From assembly GCA_050084515.1 (NCBI GenBank), contig CM114271.1, positions 2,666,001 to 2,730,000 of the forward strand: a stretch of DNA of 64,000 bases. The letters are read 5' to 3'. Source of the DNA: Blasia pusilla (taxonomy: Eukaryota). The notes below the pieces were generated by a model. It made no database searches. It saw nothing but the letters and a program-made list of their open reading frames with translations, and was not told the origin of the DNA. Below are positions 10,609 through 60,553 of the stretch, in pieces (within the stretch, counting starts at the first letter, position 1; each line of letters opens with the position of its first letter). The translations under genes and the position numbers were made by a program.

Positions 10609-10609
<1 letters not shown>

Positions 10610-10652
<43 letters not shown>

Positions 10653-16400: not shown

Positions 16401-17115
16401 ATTTGTGGGATCACGTGCTAATCTTTCTAATGGGAATAGCAAAGCTTGTTGGGTGATGGGACGAAGAGTAATAGGAATGCGAGTGTAGAGTTTAGGACGA
16501 GGGAGACTTGGATGGAAAAAGCGAAGGAGATTCATTTGGCTTAACCAGGTCTAAGCAATTGTTGTGGGGAGAGTTGTAGGAGGTTGTATCGATCGGATTA
16601 GGGATAGAAGGCCCATGCATGGATTGAGATTACTGTTGATGTCTTTTGATCCCATTAGGAGCAAACTCCTTACCATAAGGTATACAATGAACCTTTGGCA
16701 CAAATGCAGAAGTAGAAAGGTTACAATGAGAGGAGGTAGGAGGTGTATGAGGTGGTGATGGGCAACGATGAGGGGGTAAATAGGTTGGGGAAGGAGGAGG
16801 AGGAAGAGGGGAGATAAGGGTAGAACAGATAGGAGTTGGAAGCAAGGGCATATATGAGATATGTGAGGATGGCAAAGGAGTAGGATTCGATAATAATGGA
16901 TCAAGATTATACTCAATAGGATGAGACGAATAGGGGAGAAGAGGAGAATTTGGAAGAAATATAGCAAGCATAATGGGTATATTCGTATATGGAGGAAAAT
17001 GGCAAGATCTATGATGATGAGGGGAACTAGGAGGAGAGGTTACAGATGTAGGAGGGCATGTAAAACCAGAGAAGCGAGTAGATGGAATATTCAAAACCAT
17101 TTTGATGCCATATAA
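13480..17115 (-). mobile_element. Near-full-length degenerate CRE-like non-LTR retrotransposon (family B): N-terminal C2H2-like finger, RT, CCHC knuckle, RLE
   Basis: Fragments KVHCIPYGKEFAPNGIKRH; LLAMDKP..VRPLA; QFGMATPGGCE; RTHQDDPMDG (GxxQGDP equivalent); SIADDTH (YADD equivalent); ISIGGLGI; ILRCAHDGERTTIHD; LGDAVVPNP; FISFAVEVFG. Many stops and frameshifts. Confidence 0.8.
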
Positions 17116-19550
17116 GCAAAGGTAGGCAAGTCATCAAAGACAAGGGACGACAAATGAAATATCATTTTGAGAAAGCATAAGGGTAACGACCAAAACAAAA
17201 GTAGTGGAATCCATCAAAAGATTTTAAATGGAGAGAATAAGATTAGGCAATAATAAATTTATGATTGAAAATTACTTTAAGAAATATAAAAAGCTAGTAA
17301 AAAGGAAAAATGACTTATATAGTATCGAAAGAAGTGGCTCAAGATTGTGAATCTCTAATGTCCTTAAGGAGATACCAAATGTATGTAGGGATGAAATAGT
17401 AAGATAAACAGTTGAAAGAGCAAGAAAAACGTTTGAGAGGAATTGACTTTAAAAAAGCCCATATACAAAAATAGGCGCATACGGAGAATGAAGAAAAACT
17501 AGAAAACCTACTTGGTATGAAAAGAACGAGTTCGTCAAGACAATCGAAGTCTTTATCAATTTATTTTCTTATGATCCTCATTTAAGATGACAAATAAACA
17601 TAAAAATCCAAAAAGCAAGCATAATTCCTTACGTAATAGTAAAAATCATCATGAGGGAAAAAAATATTTATTTCGTACATGAATTTTTTAAGTTTATGGT
17701 TTATTATTTCAATTATTCAATTAATATAATATGTGTCAACGTAGGATGAAGGGTTCCTTAAACCCCACTCTCTTTTAATTATGTAGATTGTATTCATAAA
17801 ATTATTTTCTAGTGCAAATATGATCATCTTAATGGGCATGTATATGTTTATTTTTAAAATTAAAATTTATTAAAAAAAACTTAAATCTTAAAAGAGTAAT
17901 CACATTTCCTTAAATTATATTTCTCAATTAAGACTTAAATAATATCCATTTTTAAAAATTTCACTTCTTCTTAAAATTTTAAAGAATATCTACTTTTTCC
18001 CTTCCCCTCTTCCCTCCAAAAGAACATCCACTCACTAAATTATTAGTTAATTTTATTTAATTAAATCATTTCCTTGTTCCATTCAAATTTATTTTCTTTT
18101 CCCAAAATATAAAACTTGAATTAACATGATTATCTTTAAAAATAGTCATATTTTCATTTCAAAATTTAAATATAATTTCTATCTCCTTCAATCTTAGAGA
18201 AGTACTAACATTCCACCGTTCCACTCTTCTAAGTAGTTTCATTCCTCAATTAAAATTAAAATGATATGTCACTCCCCTAAAAAATTCCACCCTTCCATAA
18301 AATTTAAACAATATCTACTACTTATGCAAAAAAATTTATTTTTCCTTCTCATTAAATATGAATTAAGGGAAAGAATTGTAAAATTTTGTTATTTTTTAAT
18401 TATCTCACTATTATACCCCAGCCTATCCATTATAATATAGATAAATTTATTTATTTATTGATTAAAATTATTTTCCTCTTCCACTCAAATTTCTTTTCTC
18501 TATCCATCAAGCATGAAATAAGGAACAAACTTTTTTTTTAATTGTTGTTTTGTCTTATTATCCATACATAGTTCATATTATAATATATATTTCAATTATT
18601 TCGCACACCTATCTTCAGTAATTACACTTGTAACTAGTTAAAGTATGGGTGTTTATGCATGAAAATACTTTTAAAATTTAGAAATATTTTTAATTTCAAA
18701 TTTTAAATGTAAATCCTATTTTTTTTAATTGTGAAGAAGTGATCATGCATAATCCCTCTAAATAGTTCCATTTCTAAATATAAATAAGATTTCATGCTCT
18801 AAGTTATTCCATTAGTGCATAAAATTTTAAATAATACTTATTTATCCTCTCACTAATTAAATCATTAGTTAATCCTAATTAAAAAAATCATTTCCCTCTT
18901 CCATTCAAGTTCATTTTCCTCTTCCATTCAAGTTCATTTTCCCAAAATATAAAATAAATCAAAAGACAAAATTATAGGCTTGTTGCTAGTTTGTCTTATT
19001 ATGCATATAGGGTTTTCAATCACTCACACGAACACACACTCACTCACTCGCTCATTTTCAAGCCAAATCCCCTCTCATGATGAAAGTGTTATGTACATAC
19101 TCCCTTAAATGTCAATCTTTTGTATCACATAATCTTGCGATGGCGCCCTTATTACTTGTACGCACGCAAGCATATACCAAAAACATACTCACACTAGCCA
19201 CGTTTTGATTCAACCATCTTTTTTTCTCCTAAGTCTGGATCTCGGATTACCCCTCGAGCTAAACATACCTATATATGATCATATATTGACTTAATCCCTC
19301 ACTCCCCAACATATGCAAGTCATTCAAGATTTTGAACAAACTTCCTTGATATATAGGGAACTCATTGTCACCTCAAACAAGGCTCGTGTTTATGGAGATC
19401 CCAATTTCCAATATATTAACCTATGACGAGCCTCTTACTATAACTTAATATCCGAGCTAAAGTCCAAGATTAGTGTAAAAAACTATACTAGTTAGACTTG
19501 GATTCAATGGCTTGGTGTCAAAATCCCAATGCTAACCTCTCAATCCATTC

Positions 19551-20031
19551 TGTCACATCTGAGTAGCCGATAGGCCGAGATCTATCGTGGATAGGGCGTA
19601 GGAGCCAGCGGACTATCTTGAGTGTAACTTTGTCCCATGGTGTCGGATGAGGTTGAGGATAGGTCCATTGTGTCAGGAACGTCATTTCTAACAACTTTCA
19701 TGGTGAAGTCTTTCACAGCCGAGTGACTTATTGACTAGGTCACCCGCCCCTGGTAACCTGTGCGCGCAGGTTACTAAGGAGAGGGCTATTTTTAGGGGAA
19801 GAGCCTTTTGGCTCTTCCCAACCCTACATAAGAGAGGAAGATGGCTTTCCTAAGCCATCTTTCTCATGTTGGGCCGTTGGAGCACCTCCCTTGTATGTGT
19901 GTGAGATAGGACTAGGGTGCTAGCGTCTGGATTCCTTGATAGCACAGGGTGGACGAGGCTCGATATGTCGATGTAGATTGAGGAGTGGAGTTTTAGGCCG
20001 GGTGTGCCATTTTTTTTGCTCTTTATTTTTA
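19551..20031 (+). repeat. Terminal repeat A1 (LTR-like, TG start, TATA-like box near 19825)
   Basis: Aligns with 28395-28871 with roughly 20 substitutions (manual count, mostly transitions) and two small indels. Confidence 0.93.
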
Positions 20032-21122
20032 CATGAGAAATATGTCAGGGGGCTAGTGGAAATTCGTTGTTTGCAGGTAGGCAAGCGAGTTGCCTTGGTC
20101 GGGAGCCCGTGGAGACGTTGGTTGGCGTCGTATTTGTCATTTTTTCTGTTCGAAAGGCCGTGGGTGGAAGCGCTGTCCATTTTTCTCAGATTTTGCTGGT
20201 ACGGATTGACGCGGGACAACAACCAAGTGTAACGTGCGGTGGAGCGTCGAGTGTACGTGAGTGAGGGTGTTGAGAGAGAGAAGAAAAGCAGCTTGAGGGC
20301 TTGCAGCCGCCGAGGGGCTATCAAGTAAAGGAGGCTAGGGTTAGGGCGCAGACGGGCGCGGACGGTGCGCCCCCCATATGATGTTTCTGGGGCGAGACAG
20401 GGCATTGCGAGAGTTGATGATGGAGGGGCAGTGCGCATGATGCCGACGGGTTGTCCGCATCTGTTGACGGGAGGATCGACATGTTGGTCGAGGAGAGTGT
20501 TGTGTTGCGGAGATTGTCATATCACGTGGAGGAATGCATGTTGACGGTGCAGCAGGTTGGAGGGCGTGATGAGGTTACCCATTCGAGTCCCTTTTCCCGC
20601 ACTTGTTGTGTGTGATTGAGAGTGTTGGGTATCAGGTAGTAGCCGGTGCTAGGTGGGTGCAGTGATGGTGACGAGTGTAGATTCTGTTCATGTGTAGCAT
20701 GTTGGTGGATATACGGCGGTTGCCGAGTAGGGGTCGCGTGTATGACCCGAGAGAGTGTCGCTAGGTTAGGTGAGGCAGTTGGGAGGCTCATGGTGAGCCC
20801 GAGTGTTGAGTGTACGTGAGGCCGGGTATGTCATCACGGGATTGATGTTAGGATAGGTGAGCTAGTGAGGAGTGTGGGAGACTCACGGTGAGTCTGAGTG
20901 CTTGAGCGGGTGAGACAAGGTTTGTCATCACGGCATTCTTCCAGGGTTCGGAAGAACGGGGTAGTGCAAGCAGTAGTAGTGGTGTGACACGGAGTGGAGT
21001 GAGATACCGAGGAGTTACCAGTGAGGAGCTACCTCGACATCCATCCGTGGCTAGATCGTCATCATTGGACACTAGCTCTGGTGACGAGATCGCATGACAG
21101 AGATAGTAGTACTTAGCAGGAG

Positions 21123-22590
21123 ATGGACGACATGGGCCATCGGGGCATGCGTCGTTTCTCGGGTGCAGTGGGCACCATCGACTTAGATGATTTTATCCAG
21201 GAGTTCGACACATGGTGCGACTTCCAGGAGATACGAACCCCGACACGTTTCAACCCTTTTATGGCATGGAAGGAGTTGTTCTAGCACTTGGAGGGTCCTC
21301 CAATGGATGACTACATGGAGTTTTGATCACTATATTCAGTAGAGATTGATGCTTGGAGGATGTATTGGGCTCCAGGGTATGTGTCCACTAGTGGTCGCGA
21401 GGCATATGATGGGATTGTGAGAGGAGAGAGACCCACACCATTAGCCCGGAGACTAGATGGAGAGGAGGGCAGTGAGACAGGCGATGTGGTAGAGACCTCT
21501 AGTGGTAGAGGGCCATCCAGCTTCAGCCCCACAGTGGAGTTCTTCCGACAGTTGGGGAAGAGCTACCAGGGCGTACGCACCGACAAGCTGAAGAGTCTAC
21601 AGGATTTTCAGCGACGATCGGGTGAGATTATGAGAGAGGCATTCACACGCATGAGGAGGCTGATCATTGCTATGTATGGAGTGACTGAGGCGCAGTCAGT
21701 CCAGTATTGGTACGGGGTTCTGGACCGAGAACTACGGAGGAGAGTCCGAGATGCGGTGCTGATTCACACAGTGAAGCCCACATTGAAGGTGGTCTTTGAG
21801 TTGTTTGAGCGTATTGAGCTCAACATGAGTGAGGAGCAGGTAGTGACCGTTGGATTTTCTCGAGAGTCGACAGGTCCACGAGCGACGGTGACCCCACAAG
21901 TGCCACAACAAGCACCAGTACCACGGGAGCGGGCGAGTGTGCCTAGAGAGCAGGGCGGGTACCGTGAGCCTATGAGGCAACGTCCCGTACCTACATATGT
22001 TGCCCAGCAGGGACCGATGTGGTCTTGTTGGATGTGTGGAGGGGCCCATAGGTAGAGAGACTGCCCACAACATGGGAGAGGACCACCAGCACCTCCGATT
22101 GCTAAGGAGTCATAGAGGATGGCCCCACCACAGCACCAGTCTGACTACAGATATGGTCACACTAGGGATAGATGTTTTGATCTTCGCCGAGGGGCACGTC
22201 CAGAGGTAGGCCGAGGGCCTGGGGGCGGTCGTCCTGGAGGAGGTCGGGGAGTCCTTCCTGGGCGTGGTCGAGAAGACCATCACCGGCCAGAGGAGATGGA
22301 GCAGAGCACCAGAGCCGGCACTTCTCTCACGCATTGATCAGTTGGAGCAGAGGATTGCTGCCATGACGATGATGCAGCTTAGGGAAGGCACGGAGCTGCG
22401 AGCAACTAGTGTGACTCCAGCTTCTACCTCTTACCCTGACCCGGGTGAGGATCTCGCCAGTATCGGATTTATGTGTAGTGCAGCCCAGGTTGAGGCAGCT
22501 GGAGTGGTGACTCGGGGTGCTGCGAGAGGCACCGGGCCATCGAGAGGTGGAGTTGAGATTGACCCACCAGAGGGGACTGATGGGCGGTAG
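21123..22590 (+). pseudogene. gag of the DNMT-gypsy element with CCHC zinc knuckle
   Basis: RRFSGAVGTIDLDDFIQEFDTWC; LQDFQRRSGE.MREAFTRM; knuckle CWMCGGAHR*RDC at about 22026-22064. In-frame stops present. Confidence 0.75.
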
Positions 22591-23039
22591 GCTAGGGTTC
22601 CACATTCATTCACATTGTCAGAGGCACTACACACACCATCGATGGTGCCTCGACAACCAGCGGTGCCTACAGTTCAGGCACCTACGTCGACGTCATGAGG
22701 AGTTGGAGTGACAACTCCTATGCCGGCTTGAGTGGAGTCAGTGTGGACCATAGTGTTGGAGATGGCCACTAGAGTGAGTCAGACTCCGCTATTTTCCGCC
22801 ATAGAGTTGGCGACGTTGGGGGTTTGACCAGCTGAGGTGTTCCGATTGGCCGCCACGGTGTGTGAGCATGGAGAGATGACCGCTTCTTGTTCAGAGGTAG
22901 TTGAGGAGGTGGTGGACTTGCCCTCGAGCGGTGCTCGGGACGTTCCCCACAGAGTCATGGCATGCGGCGGCGGCGAAGTTGGTAGATATGCCAGCTCGAC
23001 CGACCATAGAGCAAGTAGTGGTGACACCTGGAGTAGTGT

Positions 23040-23460
23040 TATTGGATAACCGAGCTGGAGTATTTTGCTTGGTTACTCCGACGGGGACAGTATACCACCT
23101 GCAACGCGTCCTACTTGATTTGGGAGCGCAACCCTTGATGTTAGGGAAGGCGGCGTGTTTAGCGTTGGGGTTACGGAAGGCCGACATTGAGCCTTGTCCC
23201 TTCCAGATACAGATCTCGATTGGGGGCGTGTCACCCACGCAGTATATGACTCGACATGAGATAGTTGTCAGAGTCCAGCCAGAGCATGACACGGATAATG
23301 CTATGGTGCGCACACGTTCGATTACGACACCAGTTGAGTCGTACAATGTGTTGGTGGGGAGTAAAGTGTTATATCCCCTAGGATTCATCCTTGACTTATG
23401 GGAGGAGACCGTTGCTTATCGGACAGGGTGGCGGTCAGGTGACGGCCGGATGAGTCAGTT
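23040..23460 (+). pseudogene. Retropepsin-like aspartic protease domain
   Basis: VLLDLGAQP (degenerate DSG; the second copy reads LDSRAQP) and downstream YNVLVG motif. Confidence 0.7.
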
Positions 23461-23829
23461 ACCCGTGCAGTTTGCGGGACGAGGTGGTCGATCACGAGGC
23501 AAGTCTGTGACCACGTTGGCGGCTTTCACATGTAGTGTTAGCTGGCGAGGAGAGTTGTTGGAGGGGAACGAACATGCGGAGGATGTCCCAGAAGCGGATA
23601 GTCCCACGGAGAGACAGGCCATGGCGGGTGTCTCTTCCCATGTTGGCGAGACCTCTTCACCATTGTGGGGTAAGACTCGAGAGCTACAGAGGAGTGCCGA
23701 CAACCTCGTGAGGCAGGCGTGGAGTCATGCTTTTATCCCAGAGCAGCGAGAGTCACGTGGCGATCGGGCCCTTGGAGTGGAGACGTTGACCCCAGTGGAT
23801 ACCACACCCGTTGTGTGGCAGTGCCCAGA

Positions 23830-24800
23830 GGAGGGTGTTAGGGTGTTAGATCTCTTCAGAGGGATTAGCACCGGATTGGCTGCAATATTGCAGGCGGGCA
23901 TACGGGTGCATCGGTACCTTTATGTGGAGAGAGATGAGATCGCGCGGCGAGTATCATTACGTCACGTGGCGAGATTGGTCCAGAGGTATCCTGAGTTGTT
24001 TCCAGTATCTGCAGTATGGAGATATCAGCATACGCTACCCGCCGACATCTCTTTGGTGGGGGCGCAGGATCTGGATAGAGTTGGCACCATTCATTTAGTG
24101 ATTGCTGGATGGCCATATCAGGGTCATTCATCAGTTGGCCGAGGATTTGGATTGCAGCATCCGAGGTCATGGATGTTTTGGGAGATGGTATGAGTAGTAC
24201 GACACCTGCAGGAGAGTCAGATATGTTATCCAGTGTACATTTTGGAGAACGTGCTGTTGTTGGAAGACACTCGTGCACGTGTGATGACGAGTGTACATCA
24301 GGTGAGGTCCTGGTTGGGACCTGCTGTGTTTTTAGATGCAGCGAGAGTTGGGTCACGTGCCCATCATCCACAACTGTGGTGGACGAACCTGATACCATCA
24401 GATGTACTGAGTCGAGCATACGGTGGAGTCTAGAGAGCACCACATCTCGCAGTGGATGCTATTTTGGGCTCAGGGGGTCAATCTCAGGTGGTGATATAGG
24501 ATGATAGACCACCGTTGGCCATGGCCAATAGGGTGGGGGAGTTGAGGGTAGCCTTACCTATGTCTGTGAGCTTCCCAGCATCCCATGCCTTTCATCAGGG
24601 AGGGCCAGGCATGATTTGGGATGAGGTGACCGGAGCATTGGAGGAGCCTACAGCAGATGAGCGCAAACGCGCCATGGGGTTCGCTACCGGTACTACAGCC
24701 GTGCTAGGGATGACTGAGGCATCCCGGAGACAAGTGTTGGGGCAGGCGATGGACCTCAACTGTCTTACATGGATAGTCAGCCTAGGTATGGCTGAGCAGA
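23830..24800 (+). pseudogene. C5 cytosine DNA methyltransferase domain (DNMT3-like) embedded in retrotransposon pol
   Basis: Motif I VLDLFRGIST; II YVERD; III ADI; IV LVIAGWPYQGHS (catalytic Cys codon changed to TAT at 24116-24118); VI YILENV; VIII VGSRAHHPQLWWTNL; IX ERKRAMGFATGTT; X RRQVLGQAMD. Confidence 0.9.
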
Positions 24801-25199
24801 GACGGATGCGAGTGTCATCCATGCCGTCACGTCCACGAGTTGGACCATTGCCTCTGTGGTCTCTGAGGCAGGCATTGGTGGGGCGAGACGAGGAGAGATA
24901 GGCACCTATGGACTTCCTGGGACGTCGTTCGAGCAGAGAGTGCGAAGGCTGCTAGAGTAGCACATGTTCATTTTTCCGATGTGGAGCATGGTGTAGGAGG
25001 TCAGCGTGGAGTGGCTGTTGCGGAGGTGGCTAGGGTTGCTACATAGCAACCAAAGCCGGAGGTTGCGTCCTCTCCGAGTGAGGTCACGATGGAGACTTGG
25101 GAGCCTATGCTAGGTCTCAAGTTGATAGGAGGAGAGCGACGACGAGTTCATAGGTTTTGAGAGGGCATGTCAGTTGTTTTGCCTTCAGTATGAGAGACT

Positions 25200-26500
25200 T
25201 GGGTATGCTGAAGGGTCCGGGGATACGGATTGAGTTGGCTAGTGATACGCTGATCTTTCTTCGACCCTAGAGGTATTATGATATGGAGCGAGGCTTGATT
25301 CATAGCCGGAGTCAGGACTTGTGGAGTTATCACATGGGAAGTATGCATCTGCCACAGTCATGCCGGCAAAGAAGGATATGTATGGCAATTTGACGGATAG
25401 GCGGATGTGTGGAGATTACCGTCCTATCAACCGACAGACGAGGTCAGATTGATACGCCATGCCTACTCCTGAGGAGATCTTTGATGCGGTAGGGCATGCA
25501 AAGATCTTCAGTACTTTAGATCTCCGTGCTGGCTATCATCAGCTTCCTATCAAGTTGGAGGATAGGGAGAAGACAACATTATGGGGGATAGATCGGTACG
25601 GGAGAGATTGCTTGTATCAGTGGCGGTTCTTACCATTTGGGTTGAAGAATGCGCATGCAGAGTTTCAGAGAGTGATGGATAGGATTCTAGCTGGCTTGGA
25701 TTTTGTACGATGTTACATAGATGATATTCTTATCTTCAGTTCCACGGTTGAGGAGCATGAGCAACACTTGGAGGAGGTGTTTCGGCGATTTCAATTACAT
25801 GGGTGAAGTTACATCCAGCAAGTGCATTCTTTCAGGAGCAGATTGAGTACTTGGGACACACCATATACCCGAGTGGATTAGGCGTTCAGTAGACGAAGGT
25901 AGAGGCCATTGTGCAGATTCCACGCCCTACAGATGTGAGTCGAGTCCGAGCATTTCTTGGACTGGCGAACTTCTATCGACGGTATCTCAACGGTTTTAGT
26001 GCGATCTAAAAGTCTTTGATCTTGTTGACGAGACTTGATCAGGTTTGGTTGTGGGGAGATGATTAGGAGCGAGCATTTCACGAGCTCAAGGACAGGTTGA
26101 CGTCCTCACCCATTTTACAGAGACCGGTTAGGAGTCGCCCATTCTAGTTACATACGGATTGGAGCATGTTGGGTCTAGGAGCAGAGCTTACTGAGAGGGA
26201 TGACGAGGAGAGGGAGTTCGTTGTGGGTTACACGAGCCGATCGAACAATATTGCAGAGGCAAAGTACAACTCCTACGAGGGAGAGTACTTGGATGCAGTG
26301 TGGGCCGTGGCACATTTTAGGTGCTATTTATTCGGCAATCCTTTCACACTTATCACTGATCATCAGCCGTTGAGGTGGTTGATGGAGTCCGACAAGCTAA
26401 CGGGAAAGCTTGCCAAGTGGGCTCTACTACTACATGAGTATGAGTTTGAGGTGGTTCATAGGCCAGGTTGGCTGAACCAGGATGCGGATGGGTTCAGTCG
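25200..26500 (+). pseudogene. Ty3/gypsy reverse transcriptase and RNase H
   Basis: RMCGDYRPIN; FSTLDLRAGYHQL; LPFGLKNA; YIDDILIFS; LHTDWS..GLGA; YEGEYLDAVWAV; LITDHQPL; NQDADGFSR. Confidence 0.93.
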
Positions 26501-26879
26501 TAATCCATGTCTGAGTCAGAGAGACGACACAAGAGCTCGATGGCACGGAGAGAGTGATGAGGAGATGGTGCCCGGTTGGCATGCATCTGCCTATCTTTGT
26601 TGGTTGACTATGGCAGGTCAGCCACAGGTGATGACTCCAATGGTGGGGTTGGATGATGAGTCTTTGGATCCGGAGGTTAGTGAGGAGGCGACAGGTGGTC
26701 GTGATATCCATGACGACGTGGAGGTTGTGGAGTTCTTGCGCAATGGCGTCATTGCGAGTACATTGAGTGCTAGGGAGCGGGATCGGATCCTACAGAGAGT
26801 CAAGAGGTTCAAGTGGGAGGGGACTCACATTTTGCGGGTATGGGGAGACGGTAGGATACGAGTGGTACCTCATCCTTCC

Positions 26880-27950
26880 GAGCGAGCACGTGTAGTGCGA
26901 CATGCCCCTGAGCAGTTGGGACATTTCACAGTAAAGCGTACTTACAGCTTACATCAGGTTCAATATTGGTGACTCGGCATGCATACTGGGGTACAGTAGT
27001 TTGTGGCTAGATGTATGGTATGTGACAGAGCGCGAGCATCCTTCAATGCTCCCACTCCGTAGTTACATCCTTTGTCGATTATGAGTTTAGGTTATCGGTG
27101 GAGTTTACACTTTGCGGGACCTTTGCCATTGACGGGACATCATCATAGGTACGTGTTGGTCATGGTGTAGCATTTCTCCAAGTGGAAAGAGTTGGTGGCA
27201 CTACCAGACAAGGCGAGCGAGGGAACAGCTTATGCATTTCTGATCGTGTGCTTAGTCACTTTGGTGCACCGGGCGGAGGTGTTGCCCGACCAGGGTACCG
27301 AGTTGAGGGAGAGTTTCAGGCCTTATGTGATCAGGCCGATAGATCACCGCACCACGTCGAAGATCATCCCGAGGCGGATGGGTTGGCGGAGAGAGTGGTG
27401 ACGGTGAAGAGAGGATTGCGCAAGTATGGCTTGCAGCGGGGGCGATTGAGGGAGTGGGACCTCGATTTGCCATGGTTGGCTATGGGTTATTGCTTTAGTC
27501 GGCAGGCATCCTTGGCATCATTTTCACCGTACTTTTTGCTCTTTGGGAGAGAGCCAGATTTACCTGCAGCGATTCGACGTGACATGGCGGAGGTGTTAGA
27601 TCTCGATGATCCAGATGTGTGGGTACAAGCATGTTCTTAGAGGGCAGAAGTTTTTCGTAGAGTTATGCCTATGGCCTTTGAGAACTTAGCTATTGCCTAG
27701 CATAGAGATACATTGAGGTACGCGACCATTCATGGAGGAGGTTATCGTCCAAGAATTAGGAGGTTTCATCCTGGAGATTACGTGTATTTATAGCAGGTGG
27801 CACCCACGACGCTAGATGTCACTGCAGGGCGCACGATCCTACGTGTGCGCGAGGTATTACCGACCGGAGTCCTCATGTTGGAGGGACGGGATTGTATGGT
27901 TTGGAAGGATCATGTGCGCAATTGTGCGCCATGTTATCTTCCGAACGTAG
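26880..27950 (+). pseudogene. DDE integrase (HHCC zinc finger plus core)
   Basis: RHA.EQLGHF...CMVC; RWSLHFAGPLP; ELVALPDK; DQG.E; HPEADGLAER; FSPYFLLFGREP. Frameshifted. Confidence 0.88.
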
Positions 27951-27994
27951 ATGGGACGGTGGTTCCAAACTTGGCAGTGGTACCTGCAGGCTTG

Positions 27995-28136
27995 AGGTGT
28001 ATGTTGTGCAGATCTGCAAGGGATGCAACCACCATGTTGGTATGTGATGGTTGTTCTCGAGGGTGGCATATGTCATGTCTGACCCCCCCTCTTGATGTGG
28101 TTCCCACGGGATGATGGATGTGTCCGAGATGTGTAT
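27995..28136 (+). pseudogene. PHD finger (C4HC3) at the integrase C-terminus
   Basis: CMLCRSARDATTMLVCDGCSRGWHMSCLTPPLDVVPTG*WMCPRC. Confidence 0.9.
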
Positions 28137-28203
28137 AGGGTAGTAGGTCATGTTAGAGAGATGTGATATTTTCTATCTGGAGTTGGGGGATCCAACTGCC
28201 AGC

Positions 28204-28214
28204 TAGGGGGGCGG
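28204..28214 (+). promoter_or_regulatory. Polypurine-tract-like G run immediately before repeat B1
   Basis: ctaggggggcggtt here and ctagggggacgatt at the equivalent place in the second copy (54809-54821, minus strand). Confidence 0.6.
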
Positions 28215-29008
28215 TTGTGTGATCTCTATATATATGTATGAGTTGATTTTTGTACATGTGTGGATTGACCCGTGTGTGGGTAAGATCAGTGTTGTATGGT
28301 GTAGATGTGAGCCAAGGAGATGATGTATGTTACAATGAGAGAGAGCGATATGTAGAGAGAGAGATGTGTAGCGATATGTATGCGCATGACATTTTATCAC
28401 ATCTGAGTAGCCGATAGGCCGAGATCTATCGTGGATAGGGCGTAGGAGCCAGCGGACTATCTTGAGTGTAACTTTGGCCCATGGTGTCGGATGAGGTTGA
28501 GGATAGGTCCATTGTGTTAGGAACGTCGTTTTTGACAACTTTCATGTTGAGGTCTTTCACGGCCGGTGACTTGTTGACCGGGTCACCCGCCCCTAGTAAC
28601 CTGTGCGCGCAGGTTACCAAGGAGAGGGCTATTTTTAGGGGAAGAGCCTTTTGGCTCTTCCCAACCCTATATAAGAGAGAAAGATGGCTTTCCTAAGCCA
28701 TCTTTCTTATGTTGGGCCGTTGGAGCACCTCCCTTGTATGTGTGTGAGATAGGACTAGGGTGCTAGCGTCCGGATTCCTTGATGAGGGTGGATGAGGCTC
28801 GATATGTCGATGTAGATTGAGGAGTGGAGTTTTAGGCCGGGTGTGCCATTTTTTACTACTCTTTATTTTTATTGTGTGATCTCCATGTATATATATGAGT
28901 TTATTTTTGTACTTGTGTGGATCGACCCGTGTGTGGGGAAGATCGGTGTTGTGTGGTGTAGATGTGACCAGCGATGTGTGTTGTGTAGCGATATGTATGC
29001 GCACGACA
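28215..29008 (+). repeat. 3' terminal B1-A2-B2 repeat block
   Basis: B1 28215-28391 and B2 28872-29008 share ttgtgtgatctc...gtagcgatatgtatgcgcaYgaca; A2 28395-28871 matches A1. Confidence 0.9.
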
Positions 29009-30573
29009 ATTGTGTGCCCTTTGTCCATCCCCATGGTTCTAAAGGTGAGATTCAAGGTTTCAAACATTGTTAGATACTCTCCCATTTATATATGGTTTTA
29101 GAGAAATCCACCCCTTCCCTTTATCTAAGGAATTCCTCTTGGACCATTCCTTATTTTCCCCAACCCATACTATCATTCAAACAATTTCAAGTATGTTTTA
29201 AGAATTTTGATTGTACCTTTGACCAATTTTGTGTGTGTTGAAAGTGGCTTCTTAAAGATGTCTGAAAGTGCTTACGCACCTTCGGACACCGTGCTTTTGT
29301 CTTGTCCGACTATTCCAGAATTTAAATGGGCTCCCGGTGCCACCGGGGTATTATTAACCAAACCGAATCCTTCAAAATTTTGCGTGCGGCTTTTTTTCCT
29401 TTTTTTGTCTGACAGGGCCCCCAGGAGCCCTGTCAGACGGTCGCGGGCCCTTGTCGGATTTCCAATGCCACCTAATTCCTCCTAAAATTTTGTAGCCTCA
29501 AGCAACAACAACCCTCAAACGCTCAATCAAATTCCAAGCGAGGTTGCATTTTCCTATTAGTCAAACTCTTATATATGGGACTTGAGATCTTCTCAATTGC
29601 AAGTTCCACCATGGTTCCATCTAGCATTTGATCATGCTCTTCTATTTCACAACCATCGTTTTTTGAGAAGCCCATCAAGCCATGTTTGCTTCTGCAACTC
29701 AAGTTTGCCCATGAGACTTTGAAATGTGTTTCTATCTTATTATCAGCCCACTAGAGTTCTAATGTCATACGTTGGCATACGCATAATAATGAGGGTTGCG
29801 ACACTCATTCTCTTAAGAGAGTTTGATGTCCTCATCAATAACAACAATTTAATTTCAAATCTTCCTATTTGCCTAAAGTCTTGAGTTATCGCATCTAACA
29901 CAAACAAAGATTTAATTTCTTGTTTTTTGGTAACCATGGATCGAGTTCCTTAAAGCTAATCTAAGTTAACCTAATAAGTTGATGAACTAAGCATTATACC
30001 TAAGACTTCATTTGCTCACAACATGTCAAGGTTGATATCCCTCATATTTATAAGATCCCCAAGACACAATGCTTTTGAATCACCATTGAATTATATCACT
30101 AGGTTTATTCGTCACTTCAAAAGTAATTCTTGATCTTTTTTAATATTCCTTTCTACATCTCAACCTACCTTCCGAGAAATTAAATTTGATTTTTTAATTT
30201 TCATACAAAATTTACATGTCTAATAAATAAACTTCCCAATCACGTTATTTATATATATAATGTTTTTATTTTAATTTGTTCAATTTCTATTATTATTACC
30301 CTTCTCTTGGTAAACTACACTATTCTAGATATGTCCAAAGGTTTCATAAATATCAAATTTTCCTTGGATGGTCCATCAAAATAACCCAACCAGGGATTTT
30401 TTTCATATACTGTTCTCATAGTTGGGCATCATTACTATAAATATGTGTTAGAAATTGCCATCAGAGATACCATGGGAAAAATTATTGAAAATATTTGATT
30501 GAAAAAGCTTGTTTTTTTCTTTAATGTTGAGACGTTCATTGGAAATAACCACCAAAATGTATTAGTGCTACAA

Positions 30574-31499: not shown

Positions 31500-33070
31500 A
31501 CGAGCATCTTTCTAGTCCACTTTATTACGATAACAAGGGAGATGGTTTTAAGAATAAAATCCACTTTATTATAAAAATTAAACCTCAAAAGAGGACAAAG
31601 AAGGGAAGGAGGCAAGAAATATAAGAAGGGATGCAAAAAGAAGATGACAACAAGCCAACAAAAACCAACTTAATGGGCTATACAATTAATAACTTGAAAC
31701 AAATTTGACAAAAACGTCTAGTAGTGGTTGGTCATATATGAATGGACGTTGAGGTGAATGATCTCCAACCACTTCGGTTTGACATATCAATACTAAGGCG
31801 TGTGCATGTTGTAATGCCATTAGATACATTACAAAAAATAAGTAGTAACAATGGAGAGAATAGGATTATAGAAAGGGCAAAGTGATGATTCTCGAGGTAG
31901 TGATAAGCACATGTTTTTCCAAGAAAGTATTAAAAGATATACATAAGTGCTCACATACTTCCACTACAAAATGAATAAATCCTTTAGTTGCATGTCTTAT
32001 TGCGTTACTTAACACCTTCATTCTTGCTACCTCATGGGCCATAGAACCTTCAATATGTGTCACTTAACACACCAAAGTCAAATTGGTTGGATCATCAATC
32101 ACCACATCATCTAATAGATGAAAGCCACCTCAAGACATAATAATATCAACTCTCTCACAAGATGTTTCTTGTTTAATAGAAGATAGGGCATGTACATGCT
32201 TTAGCCAAAAGATGTATCCTACCGTTCTAGCCATCAATGCAACCTTCTCTTTGATCACATTATGGATCCTCGTTTGTTCTCCACCATATGCACATCGGAG
32301 AATGTGGATACCCTTTGAATCAATGGGCTTCATGCAAACACAATTTGACACACCTAGAAGAGAAGGACGGGAAGTCTAAGGCATAAGCGTAGAGTTGTTG
32401 AGAATATACTTTGAGGAAGAGAAAATGGAAGAATAAGAGAACTTTAGTAAGCCATGCCCGCCCCTCTTGTATGTGCTCATGAATGCAAACGAGCTTGATG
32501 AGTGCCTTTGAAAGAATGCTATAAAAGTTGATTTATGGCAAAGTCTAAGAGATAAACAAAGTCAAGTAAGCAGATGGAAAAAAACTTGGGTTGAATGCTC
32601 TATCAAGATAGGCACATCTCCTTCGAGAAATCGTGAAGTCATAATCGACAACCAAACCCACCTCCATAGAAGAGATGTTGGTGCATATGTTACTGTGGAG
32701 GATGGCTTCATACCTCCTAAAGAAATGGGCAAGACAGCTTCTTGTGAATTCAAGACACTATTATCTCCCTTCAATGTATTTGGATGAAGAAGTTGATCGA
32801 AAGTTGCCACAATAGAAGTGTTAAAAGATTTCAACTCATATAAGAGCTTTGAAGTGGGAGGACAAGTGCAAAGAAGGTAGGATTGGAGGGACTTTGTAGA
32901 AAATATTGGTAGAGAATCCCATAAGCCACTTTGGGATCGCCTGGATGAAGTAACAAATGAAGCTGTTCTAGATATTTATGAAGGGCCTCATCAAACAACA
33001 CGGAGACACAATTGATAAAGCTAATTGGGACATCAAGAACTTGAACTCTTTGAATATACATGGTAAAATT
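31500..33070 (-). mobile_element. 5'-truncated degenerate CRE-like LINE (family B relative)
   Basis: Colinear with 13500-15120: VAYGILYQYFL, LPISLGG, DSKGIHILRCAYGGEQTRIHN, GFIHFVVEV, and a shared 3' UTR motif. Confidence 0.78.
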
Positions 33071-33596
33071 AGGAATAAGTGAGATGAATGTCAAAGGAAA
33101 GCATGAAAAAGATCATACAATTACTCATCCAAAATAATACCATTGGCTTACACAACCAACATTTCTATCCACTAACAAAGACATTTGTAAAAAATAAAAA
33201 TCACCTAAAAATGAAGAAGCACTGTCCAATACTACTAATATATAAATTTTTTTCGACCATAAACTTAGACTACTAACATCCATATGGACTAAGAAAGACA
33301 TGATCCCAAAATGAAGAGGTACTCTTTTGTCTTATTTTACTTACTTTAAGGGTCGTTAGAGAATATTTTGTTTGCCTAAGGTGCTAACAAGAAAATTCCC
33401 GACCGTAGATGCATCCATCCCCTCCCCCCATCAATTACATCGCCCCCGTCCGATTCGGGTAGCTCCCACACCATTGACGTCTCCCCGTCCCCCTCCCTCA
33501 CGAATGAAGTTGGGATCCCTACGACTGTAGGGTCTTTTCGAAACCCCCAGCAGAACAGCTGCGGAGAAGGCGGTGGAACGCAGGAAACGATTGTGA

Positions 33597-54070: not shown

Positions 54071-57000
54071 TTTCGTGCACATACACATCGCTACACAACA
54101 CATCGCTGTCACCGAACACTTACACAAACACACACGATCAAATGCTAGTTCATAGCATCCAAACAACAAGACAAGAACTACCAAAATATCTCTAATAAAA
54201 TATGGTGAAATCTCTCTCACACCAACATAGCTCTCACATGTCTCTCTCAATGTCAAACCAAACCCACTCTCCTAATGAGAGGCTTGGGTTACACTCACAA
54301 GGCAAGGGACCATAGCTGCGCCGCCTCGTGTCAAGAGATTCAACAAAGAGAGAATGAGCTCTCAATCTCTCTCTCTCCTTGAGGTATACCTCTCCCCTCT
54401 CCCAAGCTCTCTCCATGGTAACCTATGATCCAAGTCACCTCCTTGGCTCTTGACCTGATGTAGAAGGTCAAGGGCCACTTCTCAAAATACAAAGTCGACA
54501 ATACTCAAAATTGTACTTACCTAAAATAGTAAGTTCCTCAATATGACTCCAAATGAGCCGAAACGAAGGGGAAACCTGCTCTCTCAGGTTTCCCGGGGCC
54601 TTAGGAGGTCATCCTCAACCTCTTAAGCCTGTCCTCCACTTCTCGTGAAGGCGCTCTACTAGATCTCACCGATCTATCCTAAAAGACGTAACAACTGTCG
54701 TGCGCATACACATCGCTACACAACATACATCGCTGTCACCAAACACGCACGATCCCATGCTTACTCATGGCATCCAAACACAAGACAAGAAGTACCAAAA
54801 TATCTCCAATCGTCCCCCTAGTTGGTGGTTAGGTCCCTCTAACTCCATATAGCCATCTATCCCTACCTACCATGACATACATCTCTTGGACGCTAAGAGC
54901 AAGAAGGCTGAGTGCTCATGTGGCCCCATCGTTAGTCGCCTTCTTGTCATCCATATCACAAACACAAATCATAATATAGAACTACCTACGCTATGTACAT
55001 CTGGGACACATCCATCGTCCCTAAGGAACCTTAGTGAGAGGTGACTTCAAACATGTCATATGCCATCCTCTCGAACATCCATCACAAACTAGCATAGTGG
55101 TTGCACCGCGGGCAAAACCTCACAATATACATCGCAAGCGTGTAGGAACTACTCCTAAGCTCGGATCAATTGTATTGTTAATGTTTGGAAAGTGACACGG
55201 CGCACAATTACATACATGGTCCTTCCAAACCATACCATCACGTCCCTCTTACAAGAAAACATATTATGGCAAAACCTCACGCACTCCCAAGATGGTGTGC
55301 GATGCAGTCACATCCAACGTTGTGGATGCCGTCTGCTGCAAGTAGACATAGTCTCCCTGATGAAACCTCCGGATAGTAGGTCAATAACCACCTCCCCGTA
55401 TAGTCGCATACCTCAATGTATCCCGATGTTGCGCAATCGCCAAGTTCTCAAACACCATGGGCATCACTCTCCAAAACAATTCAGACCTCTGAGAACATGC
55501 TCGCATCCATACATCAAGGGTCATCTAGGTTCAACACCTCACCAACATCTCGACGAATGGGCGAGGTAAATCTGGCTTTCGGCCATACAAAAGCAAGTAC
55601 GGTGAGAAAGACGCTAAGGATGTCTGCCTGCTGAATCTGTATCCCATCGCCAACCACGGCAACTGGAGGTCCCAATCTCCTAGATAACCTCTCTACAAGT
55701 CATACTTGGGTAATCCTCTCTTCACCGTCTGGACAACGCGCTCCGCTAGTCCATCCTCCTTATGATGATCTCGCGAAGTAGTACGGTGGTCGATTAGTGC
55801 ATGATCACACAAGGCTTGAAACTCCACGTGGAACTCCATACCCTGGTCTTTCAACACCTCAGTTGGTGCACCGTAATGACTCAGCATCCGATCTAGGAAG
55901 GCATACGCTACTCCCTCACTCACTTTGTCAGGCAATGCAACCAACTCTATCCACTGGGAGAAATGCTCAACCATCACCAACTCATAACGACTATGGCCCT
56001 CTGTCAAAGGTAAAGGTCTTGCAAAATCCAAACTCCATCTATAACCTAAACCCATAATCGGAAGTGGATGTAACTGTGGAGTCGGAGAATTGAATAATGC
56101 CCGGAATCGATCACACACAATGTATCTAGCAACAAACTACTGAACGTCAGTGTGCATGCCTTGCCATCAATAATGAATTTGGAGCAAGTTGTACGTCCGC
56201 TTCACTCCAAAATGACCTAGCTCCTCGTAGGCATGACCTACCAAACATGCTCTCTGTGAAGGATGAGGCACTACACGCACTCTACCATCCTCCCACACTC
56301 GCAACACATGTGTCTCCTCCCATCGGAACCGTCTGGCTCGCTGTAGGATCCGATCCCGCTCTCTAACACCCATTGTGCTCGCGAGTACGTAGGTACTCCA
56401 AGACTTCTCCATCGTTGTGAATATCTTGGCCATTTGTCGTCTCCTCACCGGCCTCTGGATTTAAGGACTCTCCATCAGGCCTCGCCATCGATCTGGCTCT
56501 CCATAGCCAAGAAGCCCAAATAGGCTAACGCATGCCATCCTGGCACCCACTCCTCATCACTCTCTCCATCCCATCGAGCTCCAGTCGCATCTCACTGACT
56601 CGGGCATGGGTTTCGGCTCAAACCATCTGCATCTTGGTTAAGCGTCCCAAGTCTATGTACCACTTGGAAGTCATACTCCTGCAACAAATAGCCCACCTCG
56701 CAAGTTTCCCTGTAAGCTTTTCGAACTCCATCAACCACTTAAGTGGCTGATGATAAGTAATGATGGTAAAGGGATTTCCGAATAGATAACATCTGAAATG
56801 TACGATAGTCCACACTACAACCAAGCACTCACCCTCATACAAGCTATACTTTGCCTCTGCAGCGTTGTTCAAGCGACTAGCGTAAGCCACCACGAACTCT
56901 CTACCATCATCGTCATGCTGGGTGAGCACAGCTCCAAGCCCCAACATGCTCCAATCGATATGCAACTGGAAAGGACGCCCCCTGATCGGTCTCCTCAATA

Positions 57001-60000
57001 TGGACGTGGACATCAATTTGTCCTTGAGCAGGTGAAATGCTCTCTCCTGCTCATCCTCCCAGTGCCACTCCTAATCCACCTTCGTCAGCAAGGTTAGTGG
57101 CTTCGCAATCGAACTAAAACCCTTGACGAACCGTCGATAGAAGTTTGCCAATCCCATGAATGCACGAACTCGACTCACATCTGTAGGGCATGGAATGCGT
57201 GAAATAGCCTCTACCTTCGTCTGCTGCACACCAAGGCCCCTTGGATATATCCTATGACCCAGGTTCTCAATCTGGTCATAGAAGAACTTGCACTTGCCTG
57301 GATGTAGCTTTAGCCCATATAACTGCAATCATCGAAACACCTCCTGTAGATGTCGCTCAAGCTCCTCAACCGAGGCGCTAAAGACTACGATGTCATAAAT
57401 ATAACACCTAGCAAAATCAAGACCTGCCAAGATCCTATCCATGACCCTCTGAAACTCAGCCAGGGCATTCTTTAACCCAAATGGTAAGAACCACCACTGG
57501 TACAAACAATCCTTCGTGAGGATTGATGCCCCAAAATGCCGTCTTGTGCATGTTCTCCAATCTAATAGGCAGTTGATGGTATCTGGCTCGAAGATCTAAC
57601 AAACTGAAGACCTTTGCATGCCAAATAGCATCCAAGATCTCTTTAGGGATGGGCATGGCATACCTATCGGACTTGGTCTGCCGATTGATAGGTCGGTAAT
57701 CTCCTCACATCCGCCTATCCGTCGAGTTGCCATGCACATCCTTCTTGGTGGGCATGACAGTGGAAGATGCATACTCTCCATGCGACATCTCCACTAGTCT
57801 TGCTCCAACCAAGTCCTGGCTCCTACTTTGAATCAGAGCCCTCTCCATGTCACTATACCTGTAGGGTCGTCGAAAGATCGGCGTGTCACTTGACAACTCA
57901 ATGCGGATCCCTGGACCCTTCAGCATACCCAAATCATGCATACTAAATGTAAAACAACTCCTATAACTCCTCACGAACTGATGTATTTGACGCCGCTCTC
58001 CTCCTATGAACTTAGGGCCCATATCTGGCTCCCAAGTCTCCATCGTGACTACGGTAGGACTCTTCAGCGTGGGTGTAGATGGTTGTTATGATACAACATT
58101 GTCTCGGACAACAAAACTTGACTGCTCCCCTATAACCAACTGCAAAATTGGATCTCCATGTGTAGTACCTAGGCTCAATGTTGTGGCTACCATCTCCTAG
58201 CGTACCTGCAAAACATCCCAAGAAGTCCAAGGGTGTCTCTCCCAATCATCCCTAGTGTATCAATCTCCTTGGGTCTTGCCCCCAACCATTGCCTCAACCA
58301 TCTCGGTAGGCATGGGGCTCACCAACGCAACAATTGTGATCTGTCGCATCTGCAAACGACGTTGCTCAGCTACTCCTAAGCTGAAAATCCATGTCAAGCA
58401 ATTCAGGTCCATCGCCTGATCCAAGACATGACGTCGTGATGCCTCTGATAGTGACGAAACTGCCATTACTCCTATGGGGAATCCCATCACTCGCTCTCAC
58501 TCATCGGCGTTGGGCTCCACCAACCGATGTACTTGGTCATATCAAACCAAGCCATGTCTGGACTCCTCGAATGCATAGGAAGCGGGAAAACTCACCAAGG
58601 TGGAAAAGGCTGCCCGTGGCATGCCAATCTTGTTCATCACAATCAACGGAGATTGAACATCGTGTCATACTTCCTGTGATGGATGACCTAGATCCACAAT
58701 AGAACCCACCAAAAAATTAGAGGGGCGCTCCACTCTCGCATATGCCCTTTGCAACACCTCATGTGGTACCAAGTTGGTCCACCAAAAATGCGGGCGGTGT
58801 GCTCTAGAACCTACACTCGCCGTATCTAACAACACTTCCAGGATGATCCATGTGCGCACCTAATGTGCACCCGTCACCACGCGGGTATCGAATCGCCCAA
58901 AATCGGCACATTCTCGAGAATGTATGTTGGAGAACGAGGCTAATGCTCATGTAAATGTCGCAAGATCCGCATCATCTCCCAAAACAACCTGGACTGAGTG
59001 TCAACTAATCCGCTACCTCGTCCAACACGCGATTGGCTTTGACACGGCCAACCAGCAATGACCAAGTCTATGGTCCCTAGCCTCTCCAAGTCCTACGTCC
59101 CCAACAATGAAATATCCCTCGGTAGGGAACTTTGGTAATCCTAGATGGCGGACGCAAACAACAAGTCGAGAAAGCGAAGGCCTAACTGCGCTACATGATG
59201 AAGTGAAGCGCGCCTTGCAACATCATCAATCTCCACATACAGGTACTGTTGCACGTGTACTCCTGCCTGCAAAAAAGCAGCTAACCTAGTGCTGATCCCT
59301 CCAAAGAGATCCAACACCCGAATACCCTCCTCTGGGATGCGCCACATAATAGGTATGGTGTCCAAGGGCGTCATCAAAGCACTCTCGACTGCCTTGGGTT
59401 CCTCTGACCCATCACGCTTTGGTGCAAACATCTCGCTCCACGCGGTCTACATATGCTCAGTGGCTAAGTGTCGAAGCTCCTCAGTCAAGCCCCAAAGCGG
59501 CACCTCTTCTCCACGGAGTGATGCGGCGACCATGACACTCCTCTCCATAGAAATTTCAAGAACGAGCATATCCTCTGTATGGACATGTCCCTCAGTTGAA
59601 TCACTAGGCCAAGTGATGGCGCTGCTAAATGTTGCTAAGGTCGCCATCTCTCTTGGCCGTCGCTTGATCATTGCACCTGTGAATCAAACGGGTAATGAGC
59701 TAAGGCGCCCATCACCTGACTGCCATCCTGGTCTATAGGACGCTGACTCCTCCCAGTAATCCAAGGAAAATCCCATCGGGTATAACACTGCTCCACCAAC
59801 CAAGATGTGGTAGGACTCTACATCAATCACTATCCCCTTGGCTCGCGCCACAGACTCATCTCTAGGATGTCCCGGGCGAATCCTCACCAAAACCTCCTGT
59901 CGGGTGATATATTGTGTGGTACTCGCTCCATCCAAGGATGTATGTATCCCGAATGGAAAACGCTCTACATCGGCTTTGGTCAAGCCCAATCCTCTGAATG

Positions 60001-60553
60001 ACGCTTTCCCCAACATTAGGGGTTGCGCTCGTGAATCCAACAAAGACGCGTTGCGGACTAGAAGCTCTACCTCCGGGACTCACCAATTAGAAGACCTCTC
60101 CCCGGTTATCCAACAACACAACACCGAGAGAAGCCATGGCACGCTCTATCGCGGGTCTAGCGGGCATCTCTACCATCTTAGCAGCCGCAGCCTGCCATGA
60201 ATCTGACGTGGACGGCCCGAGTATCCGCTCCAAGGGCAGGTTTATCACCTCCTCTGCAATCATATCTAAACATGATGTAGGAACTCCAACTCCACGCTCA
60301 CATAGCCTAGGGCCAACAGAACACCTTGACGGGCGTACCTCCAAATATCATAACATCGAAAGCAAAAAATAGCGGAGCACGGTACACCATCGTGGTCGCC
60401 CCCAACATCGTACTTGACACATGCTCCTCGTGAGCATTAGTAATAGCAGTCTTCACACTCGTTTCTCCCATCGCCCTCCGTGCCTGCACACCAATAACAT
60501 CACTAACTCTCCTAGAACTCTGATCAGGAGAGGATCATCGATTGGGTCCTCAT
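54071..60553 (-). mobile_element. Second, divergent DNMT- and PHD-encoding Ty3/gypsy-like element, interrupted at its 5' part by a copia insertion
   Basis: Colinear with 22630-29008: protease (~59700-60050), DNMT (~58380-59330), RT/RH (~56600-57900), integrase (~55200-56300), PHD (~54995-55135), then G-run and B'-A'-B' repeats (54696-54810, 54203-54693, 54071-54196). Confidence 0.9.
58380..59330 (-). pseudogene. C5 cytosine methyltransferase domain of the second element, catalytic Pro-Cys retained
   Basis: VLDLFGGIST; YVEID; LVIAGWPCQ (TGT at 59042-59044, minus strand); YILENV; VGSRAHRPHFWWTNL; MMGFP; RRHVLDQAMDLNCL. Confidence 0.9.

Follow-up and report, generated by a model that had tools for sequence, protein, structure and literature searches.

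A retroelement with split direct repeats lies in the window analysed here, a 64,000-nt stretch of Blasia pusilla contig CM114271.1 (assembly GCA_050084515.1, positions 2,666,001 to 2,730,000). This element, called element 1, spans positions 19551-29008 of the window and is arranged as A1-internal-B1-A2-B2, with a repeat A alone at the 5' end and the repeats B, A and B following one another at the 3' end. It is an old, frame-broken copy of Ty3/gypsy type from a bryophyte-type host lineage. After comparison with relatives in other assemblies we conclude with high confidence that the split-repeat architecture is lineage-wide and that it is integrated by a DDE integrase. Two identical long terminal repeats (LTRs), one per end, are a trait of Ty3/gypsy elements that was found neither in the window nor in any of the three full relatives. 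The TG..CA termini and the target duplication of 4-6 bp that also mark this group were found, the window copy being flanked by ATTC and ATTG.

Self-comparison of the window aligned A1 (19546-20031) with A2 (28390-28871) at 94.0% identity over 487 nt, B1 (28215-28310) with B2 (28872-28967) at 90.6% over 96 nt, and the ends of the two B copies (28365-28394 and 28982-29011) at 93% over 30 nt. An earlier note on this DNA had described the repeats A and B, the G-run, the junction and the TGTC and GACA ends at the positions listed below, and both self-comparison and the sequence agree with it. About 40 bases in the middle of B1 (28311-28364), rich in GA repeats (gagagagagcgatatgtagagagagagatg), are not present in B2; they stem either from an indel after insertion or from a variable purine-rich stretch. 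A 25-nt motif at the end of B has four copies in the window (at 28367 and 28984, and on the minus strand at 54071 and 54696), compared with 0.00 expected from shuffled sequences. Searching the window with this motif revealed no B standing as an independent element; the genome-wide occurrence of such an element is what the earlier note had named as speaking against its reading. Element 1 is decayed, with a longest frame of at most 430 codons, 6% divergence between A1 and A2 and many frame breaks. Its features are as follows; L041 is an intact relative described further below.

19547..19550, plus strand: 5' copy of the likely 4-bp target duplication (ATTC), with three of four bases as in ATTG; in relatives the duplication is perfect at both boundaries
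19551..20031, plus strand: repeat A1, starting with TGTC (left integrase end), 94% identical to A2
near 19827, plus strand: TATA-like box in A1, at A position 276
19860..19868, plus strand: TTTCTCATG, putative transcript 5' end and self-primer, perfectly complementary to the 9 bases that follow A1
20032..20040, plus strand: CATGAGAAA, putative primer-binding site for self-priming, abutting the A1 end, from sequence and complementarity
21120..24802, plus strand: decayed region of open reading frame (ORF) 1, with a gag-like part (21120-21893) and a protease and DNA-methylase-like part (22973-24802), located by tblastn of L041 ORF1
25157..28132, plus strand: decayed pol with several frame breaks, located by Pfam and by tblastn of L041 ORF2; its parts are reverse transcriptase (RT, 25453-25803), RNase H (26148-26440), integrase zinc finger and DDE core (about 26900-27640) and a PHD finger (27998-28096)
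28205..28214, plus strand: polypurine tract (PPT), the G-run AGGGGGGCGG, directly 5' of B1, from sequence
28215..28391, plus strand: repeat B1, putative 5' part of the unique 3' region (U3), with the 3' end GCGCATGACA, from self-comparison and sequence
28388..28398, plus strand: internal palindromic junction GACA-TTT-TATC, putative integrase site, from sequence; TATC corresponds to TGTC in A1
28395..28871, plus strand: repeat A2, 94% identical to A1
28872..29008, plus strand: repeat B2, joined exactly to the A2 end and ending with GACA (right integrase end), from self-comparison and sequence
29009..29012, plus strand: 3' copy of the likely target duplication (ATTG), from sequence

Position 19827 is a T in most reads and contigs of the family, which makes the box TATAAG. 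From about 19860 onward A1 would correspond to the repeat and unique 5' regions (R-U5). The flanks ATTC and ATTG fit a 4-bp duplication followed by one later substitution.

The generality of this layout was examined at 80 loci from metagenome contigs, fetched via alignment of relatives with up to 10 kb of flank per side. The loci were typed by self-comparison and by comparison with A and B of locus L044, and at 40 of the 80 a B of the L044 type follows the pol match. The counts of the different forms are soft since the contigs are short-read metagenome assemblies that are possibly chimeric. The 3' ends were distributed as follows.

PPT-B-A-B: 12 loci, 9 distinct insertions (judged by flank, L008 equals L061, L017 equals L021 and L050 equals L051)
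PPT-B-A, then contig end or rearrangement: 2 loci (L049 and L020)
Single B, then unrelated sequence: 20 loci, 16 distinct insertions
Truncated B or contig end: 6 loci

At L020 (3246-3878) the sequence PPT-B-A is followed by an inverted partial A (A positions 2-181, other strand) in place of B2, which represents either a rearrangement or a head-to-head neighbour.

Both ends are present together with B-A-B at three loci (L021, L044 and L072), and all three read A-internal-PPT-B-A-B. These copies start with TGTC or TATC, end with GACA or AACA and are flanked by perfect 4-bp target duplications (TCTC, AAGG and AATC, respectively). The duplication of 3-4 bp that had been suspected from the window is thus real, and measures 4 bp in the relatives. 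Neither a B nor a second A was found beside the 5' A at any of the 18 loci that have one. The earlier note had asked whether A...B-A-B is the rule or the result of a damaged 5' LTR, for which full LTRs at both ends of most copies would have spoken. The nine distinct insertions and the three complete two-ended copies show it to be the rule in this lineage, and full LTRs at both ends were not seen, no B adjoining A at these 18 loci.

The coding content of the lineage was analysed by Pfam and tblastn. In element 1 Pfam matched RVT_1 (E 6e-20), RT_RNaseH (E 2e-25) and PHD (E 1e-8). The integrase core domain rve gave no direct match in element 1 because this copy is decayed, and the frames of the ORF1 region (21120-24802) gave no match at all, including to a methylase domain. 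No tyrosine recombinase (Phage_integrase or other) was detected by Pfam in 61 plus-strand frames and 11 minus-strand ORFs of the window or in the ORFs of the relatives. A fragment covering RNase H and the integrase finger has 140 database relatives, many of them with Integrase_H2C2 and rve; those with names are from the liverworts Marchantia polymorpha and Calypogeia fissa. The L041 contig carries an intact relative with two ORFs separated by one stop codon. Its ORF1 (1369 aa) has an aspartyl protease and a C-5 DNA methylase match (PF00145, E 2e-13), and its ORF2 (1047 aa) has RVT_1, RT_RNaseH, Integrase_H2C2 (E 1e-17), rve (E 1e-13) and PHD. When aligned to element 1 by tblastn, ORF1 matched over aa 67-353 at 25% identity and over aa 665-1260 at 37.6%, and ORF2 over aa 44-1034 at 55-66%. 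Among solved structures ORF2 comes closest to Ty3 Gag-Pol (7q5b, E 4e-98), and its integrase part resembles the integrase of prototype foamy virus (E 2e-21). The order protease (PR)-RT-RNase H-DDE integrase that is typical of Ty3/gypsy pol was found in the L041 ORFs and in protein P0142. The lineage is therefore of Ty3/gypsy type, with genes for gag, PR, a C5-DNA-methylase-like domain, RT, RNase H, an H2C2 and DDE integrase and a C-terminal PHD finger. That a DDE integrase and no tyrosine recombinase is involved, as had been read from the window, holds for the window frames, L041 and P0142.

The methylase-like domain lies between protease and RT (L041:976-5082, ORF1 aa 940-1086), and the homologous regions of the window are 22973-24802 and 60043-58359. 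PF00145 was found in L041 ORF1, P0142 and 29 of 35 database matches. It also occurs in Marchantia Mp_4g09160 and MARPO_0008s0049 and in fused polyproteins of 2300 aa. In L041 a single stop codon (5083-5085) parts the in-frame ORF1 (gag-PR-methylase) from ORF2 (RT-RNase H-integrase-PHD), whereas other relatives have one fused frame of 2300 aa; this suggests that L041 pol may be expressed by stop read-through.

The window holds a second, diverged relative on the minus strand, element 2, to which both L041 ORFs also map by tblastn. Its features are the following.

54071..60490, minus strand: element 2, 5' end not found, from repeat comparison and tblastn
60043-54997, minus strand: pol and the PR-methylase-like region, from tblastn of L041 ORFs
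54820-54811, minus strand: G-run, before B'1
about 54806-54696, minus strand: B'1, followed by the spacer gt
54693-54193, minus strand: A'
54192-54071, minus strand: B'2

Recognisable homology stops near 60490, and a second copy of A' was not found in the window. B'1 and B'2 are 80% identical over 126 nt. A' is unrelated to A, and the repeats of elements 1 and 2 have only the last 40-50 nt of B in common. These observations confirm what the earlier note had described for this element: the series G-run-B'-A'-B', a gaca-gt junction, a dissimilar A' and a common motif at the end of B. The regions of elements 1 and 2 have a GC content of 51-56%, compared to 30-39% in the flanks, and their sense strands are richer in G than in C. 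The GC skew was +0.19 to +0.30 at 20001-28000 (element 1) and -0.16 to -0.24 at 54001-62000 (element 2, which is on the other strand).

Signals for the priming of reverse transcription were found in defined positions relative to the repeats. A G-rich PPT lies directly 5' of B1 in every lineage seen, that is in element 1, element 2, L041 and all 12 B-A-B loci. In L044-type copies the sequence directly after A1 starts with CTCAAAGAAC and is the complement of a site in A that lies 27-30 nt past a TATA-like box. This complement measures 15 nt in L044 and L045, and it is at least 9 nt long and within one base of the A end in 11 of 17 5' copies. At most 5 of 500 shuffled leaders equalled the complementarity, the value for the window being 5 of 500. 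In the window CATGAGAAA (20032-20040) complements TTTCTCATG (19860-19868), which is located 33 nt past the TATA-like box at 19827. The L044-type pair occupies the same two places with other letters (CTCAAAGAACTATGT and ACATAGTTCTTTGAG), so between lineages the sequences of the priming pair differ and the complementarity is kept. A tRNA-type primer site after A1 was not seen by eye, no formal tRNA comparison having been made. A is not preceded by a purine tract, and a primer site following B was not found. As predicted from the sequences, a PPT before B and a primer site after A1 would be in the canonical positions of an LTR element, and the layout of the complementarity is that of Tf1-type self-priming. 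Since the PPT and the primer site mark the B start as the U3 start and the A end as the U5 end, a canonical complementary DNA (cDNA) would have B+A as its LTR.

The integrated copies have different boundaries: they start at the A start and end at the B end, each terminus corresponding to one half of the internal junction GACA-NN-TGTC. Between these halves lie 2 nt in relatives and 3 nt in the window, and L044 has a perfect palindrome of 16 nt here. Across lineages in which A and B cannot otherwise be aligned, conservation is limited to the first bases of A and the final 40-50 nt of B, which look as expected for putative integrase-binding ends. At the A2|B2 joint most copies have the last U5 base joined to the first base past the PPT; the L017/L021 insertion carries 20 extra nt with a local duplication there. 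In eight distinct copies B1 and B2 were 94.1% identical within a copy and 91.8% between copies, and no column separated B1 from B2 except for one tied column (col 94). The closer likeness within a copy and the lack of a separating signature indicate that B2 is remade from the template of B1 at each insertion, as in an LTR pair. This supports the conclusion that both integrated ends derive by copying from the internal B-A junction region. The earlier note had proposed that the internal junction templates both ends by a non-canonical route of reverse transcription. The first part is borne out by the behaviour of B1 and B2; the second does not agree with the canonical positions of the PPT and the self-primer. 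The odd step is more likely the definition of the ends and integration than reverse transcription.

To explain these observations we tentatively propose, at a little under an even chance, that a two-LTR cDNA is circularly permuted at GACA-NN-TGTC. Transcription would start inside A1 and end in A2, and self-primed canonical reverse transcription would give B-A-internal-B-A. In this cDNA each LTR would be B+A, with B and the first part of A as U3 and the rest of A as R-U5. The tips of the cDNA (the A end and the B start) would be joined, as in a two-LTR circle. The integrase sites would not be at the LTR tips, but at the GACA-NN-TGTC palindrome between B and A. The DDE integrase would open the 5'-LTR palindrome by cuts staggered by 2 nt, producing the two CA-3'OH ends in a single step. 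The B of the 5' LTR would then land at the 3' end, and integration would yield A-internal-B-A-B with a 4-bp duplication. As a guess at the kinetics, use of the 5' LTR might be due to its becoming double-stranded long before the 3' LTR. Cutting of a palindromic LTR-LTR junction by integrase has precedents in the portions available of three papers (PMC1905944, PMC1180852, PMC4372172). A wider reading appears possible but is more doubtful: that the integrase sites moved from the LTR tips to an internal palindrome, that end-joined cDNA is the normal substrate and that the split-repeat layout was reached by convergence.

Expression and abundance were followed in two stranded RNA runs and two sets of DNA contigs from the species of the window. 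The DNA contigs contain the family in great abundance. RNA reads cover the whole element, nearly all with the first mate on the minus strand, which in most stranded libraries corresponds to sense RNA. The reads are 90-95% alike to element 1 and hence come from other copies. Reads spanning the B|A junction numbered 58-79 per listed loose end and belong to a subfamily resembling element 2. Many B1-B2 joints in the DNA are ambiguous, B1 and B2 being alike and the contigs about 100-200 nt long.

Several observations weigh against the proposed architecture and mechanism. Every copy with visible ends is decayed, and the contig of the intact L041 stops inside A2, so that PPT-B-A is visible and B2 is unseen. 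No transcript start or end stood out clearly from the RNA reads, which gave only four weak places with 5-6 molecules. Extrachromosomal DNA forms of the element were not encountered, and the joined or permuted cDNA intermediate is purely inferred. A symmetric cut of a circle is expected to give A-B-A-internal-B equally often, and this form occurs at none of the 18 loci with a 5' A. Its absence may reflect directed site choice, loss or collapse in short-read assemblies, or a wrong model. The absence is not to be pressed, as short-read metagenome assemblies may collapse such a loop. The single-B copies may stem from deletion between B1 and B2, from direct integration of A-internal-B or from assembly collapse. 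Finally, the flanks of L040 (single B, 13493-20763) and L075 (B-A-B, 8251-15427) are 95-99% alike (99% over 6.4 kb) and their interiors 91%. This suggests that the same locus is present in both forms and that the contigs may be chimeric. Probably at least one of the two is a mosaic of family members, a warning that repeat-rich metagenome contigs can be mosaics.

The single-B copies lead to another explanation, in which the integrating unit is A-internal-B, cut from linear cDNA or a one-LTR circle at the palindrome. Single-B copies would then be primary and B-A-B either a minority by-product or the only replicating subset. The distinct insertions with a single B outnumber those with B-A-B (16 vs 9). 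At the six single-B loci that hold both ends the termini are the same as in the B-A-B copies, and there are 4-bp duplications, four of them perfect (ATTA, TACA, TGTG and ATGC) and two matching at 3 of 4 bases. However, an integrated copy without a 3' R could not be reverse-transcribed by the signals found, both elements of the window have B-A-B, and the two forms of one locus in L040 and L075 point to deletion or assembly collapse. We consider this explanation rather unlikely and treat the single-B form as derived or artefactual. That the elements are ordinary LTR elements in which part of the 5' LTR was lost or a local duplication gained, or that the layout is an assembly artefact, is highly improbable. 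The age and decay of element 1, with its 6% divergence between A1 and A2 and its many frame breaks, would suit such an origin. The same layout was nevertheless found in element 2 and in nine distinct insertions of other assemblies, perfect 4-bp duplications occur exactly at the A1 start and the B2 end in 3 of 3 cases, and B1 and B2 differ by 4-9%, so they are no collapsed repeat. A separate A-B insertion beside B1 was rejected on account of the bases before A2, which are unlike those after B2 (in L044 CAGC vs AAGG). A truncated 5' LTR, a tandem A-B insertion and an assembly artefact are likewise refuted by the full relatives with duplications and by the loci with a 5' A.

Replication of the DIRS type in combination with a DDE integrase would place the origin of the layout in reverse transcription itself. 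The transcript would run from A1 into B2, and the internal B1-A2 junction would template the cDNA ends. The repeat topology is as printed for DIRS-type elements, given as 'A-coding region-B-A-B' in the legend of Fig. 1e of the parts available of PMC5890265. Also in agreement are the RNA reads that contain the B|A junction, the renewal of B2 in each cycle, and the single orientation, which suits deterministic synthesis better than a random cut. The priming signals argue otherwise: a PPT abutting B and a self-primer site abutting the A end predict cDNA ends at the B start and the A end, and neither a purine tract before A nor a primer site after B was found. On paper no series of strand transfers from these signals gave the observed product. 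In the variants tried, plus-strand synthesis was primed a second time at the B|A junction, displacement synthesis halted at the palindrome, or the primer-site copy within A2 was used for priming; by strand transfers alone each gave B+A LTRs, A-internal-B or A-internal-B-A, and never A-internal-B-A-B. With the missing tyrosine recombinase and the target duplications also against it, we regard DIRS-type replication as unlikely.

DIRS, PAT and Ngaro elements share with the present lineage the order A1-internal-B1-A2-B2 and an internal B-A junction that informs both ends. They differ in having a tyrosine recombinase and are not known to make a target duplication, whereas here an H2C2 and DDE integrase, TG..CA ends, 4-bp duplications and a pol closest to Ty3 are found. 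Among the papers listed on retrotransposons with split direct repeats, titles and abstract beginnings mention no case with a DDE integrase. No paper on this lineage came up in literature searches for Gypsy integrases with a PHD finger or for self-priming in plants. The closest printed precedent is KnitGypsy-Dnmt3 of Klebsormidium nitens, a Gypsy element whose polyprotein includes a Dnmt3-type domain (de Mendoza et al. 2018, PMC5890265), likened here by description and not by sequence. According to the legend of Fig. 4c of that paper it has a DIRS-like repeat arrangement and typical Gypsy domains. The available text gives no target duplication, termini, priming sites or mechanism for it (PMC5890265), and a literature search found the name 'KnitGypsy' in no other paper. 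The relatives described here also combine Gypsy domains and a C5 DNA methyltransferase (DNMT; PF00145) with DIRS-like repeats. They differ in host, the named ones being from liverworts (Marchantia, Calypogeia) and not from a charophyte, and in having a PHD finger. Beyond this precedent, the analysis adds that the elements start with TGTC and end with GACA, are flanked by 4-bp duplications and have a palindrome at the internal junction and a predicted self-primer, that the B copies behave as an LTR pair does, and that two forms occur. The earlier note had stated that split repeats typify tyrosine-recombinase elements, with which the topology agrees, and not ordinary gypsy elements, for which KnitGypsy-Dnmt3 is a printed exception in the portion available of PMC5890265. 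Retrotransposon-borne DNMTs have been reported in Klebsormidium as a lineage-specific acquisition; the present data suggest a wider spread among streptophytes. As the relatives described here include Marchantia proteins, the lineage extends to land plants.

In Tf1 self-priming the 5' end of the transcript is complementary to a site just after the 5' repeat. Predicted self-priming is what the present lineage would have in common with Tf1/Sushi and Tcn1 elements, which differ from it by identical LTRs and a chromodomain; here a PHD finger takes the place of the chromodomain and the repeats are split. The Tcn1 clade occurs in mosses and club-mosses, where Tf1/Sushi-type self-priming has been predicted (PMC6317226, as far as available). 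The two-LTR circles of retroviruses (HIV-1, foamy virus), as described in the partly available sources cited above, also contain a CA-NN..-TG palindrome that a DDE integrase could open into both ends. There the palindrome arises where the two LTR tips are joined, in a circle that is a side product; in the present lineage each LTR contains it internally and the permuted form would be normal. The comparison with Troyka that the earlier note had asked for spoke against membership in that group. Troyka is likewise an atypical Gypsy-like LTR element, but in the available part of its description it is confined to animal phyla and has 5'-CG..CG-3' termini, 3-bp duplications and ordinary LTRs (Kojima 2025, PMC12440569). 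The TG..CA termini, 4-bp duplications and plant-type host found here rule out identity with it.

The window also contains repeats outside elements 1 and 2. At 163-815 there is a tandem array, unrelated to the element, with a unit of about 64 bp and nine overlapping 87-nt copies at 62-94%. Dispersed direct repeats were found at 14151-15167 and 32213-33117 (about 75%) and at 12689-12794 and 50557-50662 (about 89%); these two pairs probably represent other transposable elements.

Programs that find or classify LTR elements assume two identical terminal repeats, so elements of the present kind will be mis-bounded or called truncated. Split direct repeats have counted as a sign of tyrosine-recombinase elements, and here they stand beside a DDE integrase and target duplications. 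The layout uncouples the end points of reverse transcription from the integrase cut sites, which are tied together in textbooks. If the permutation mechanism is true, a form resembling the two-LTR circle, which in retroviruses is a dead end, would be an obligatory intermediate in this lineage. Origin and purpose of the split repeats can thereby be tested in a tractable plant such as Marchantia.

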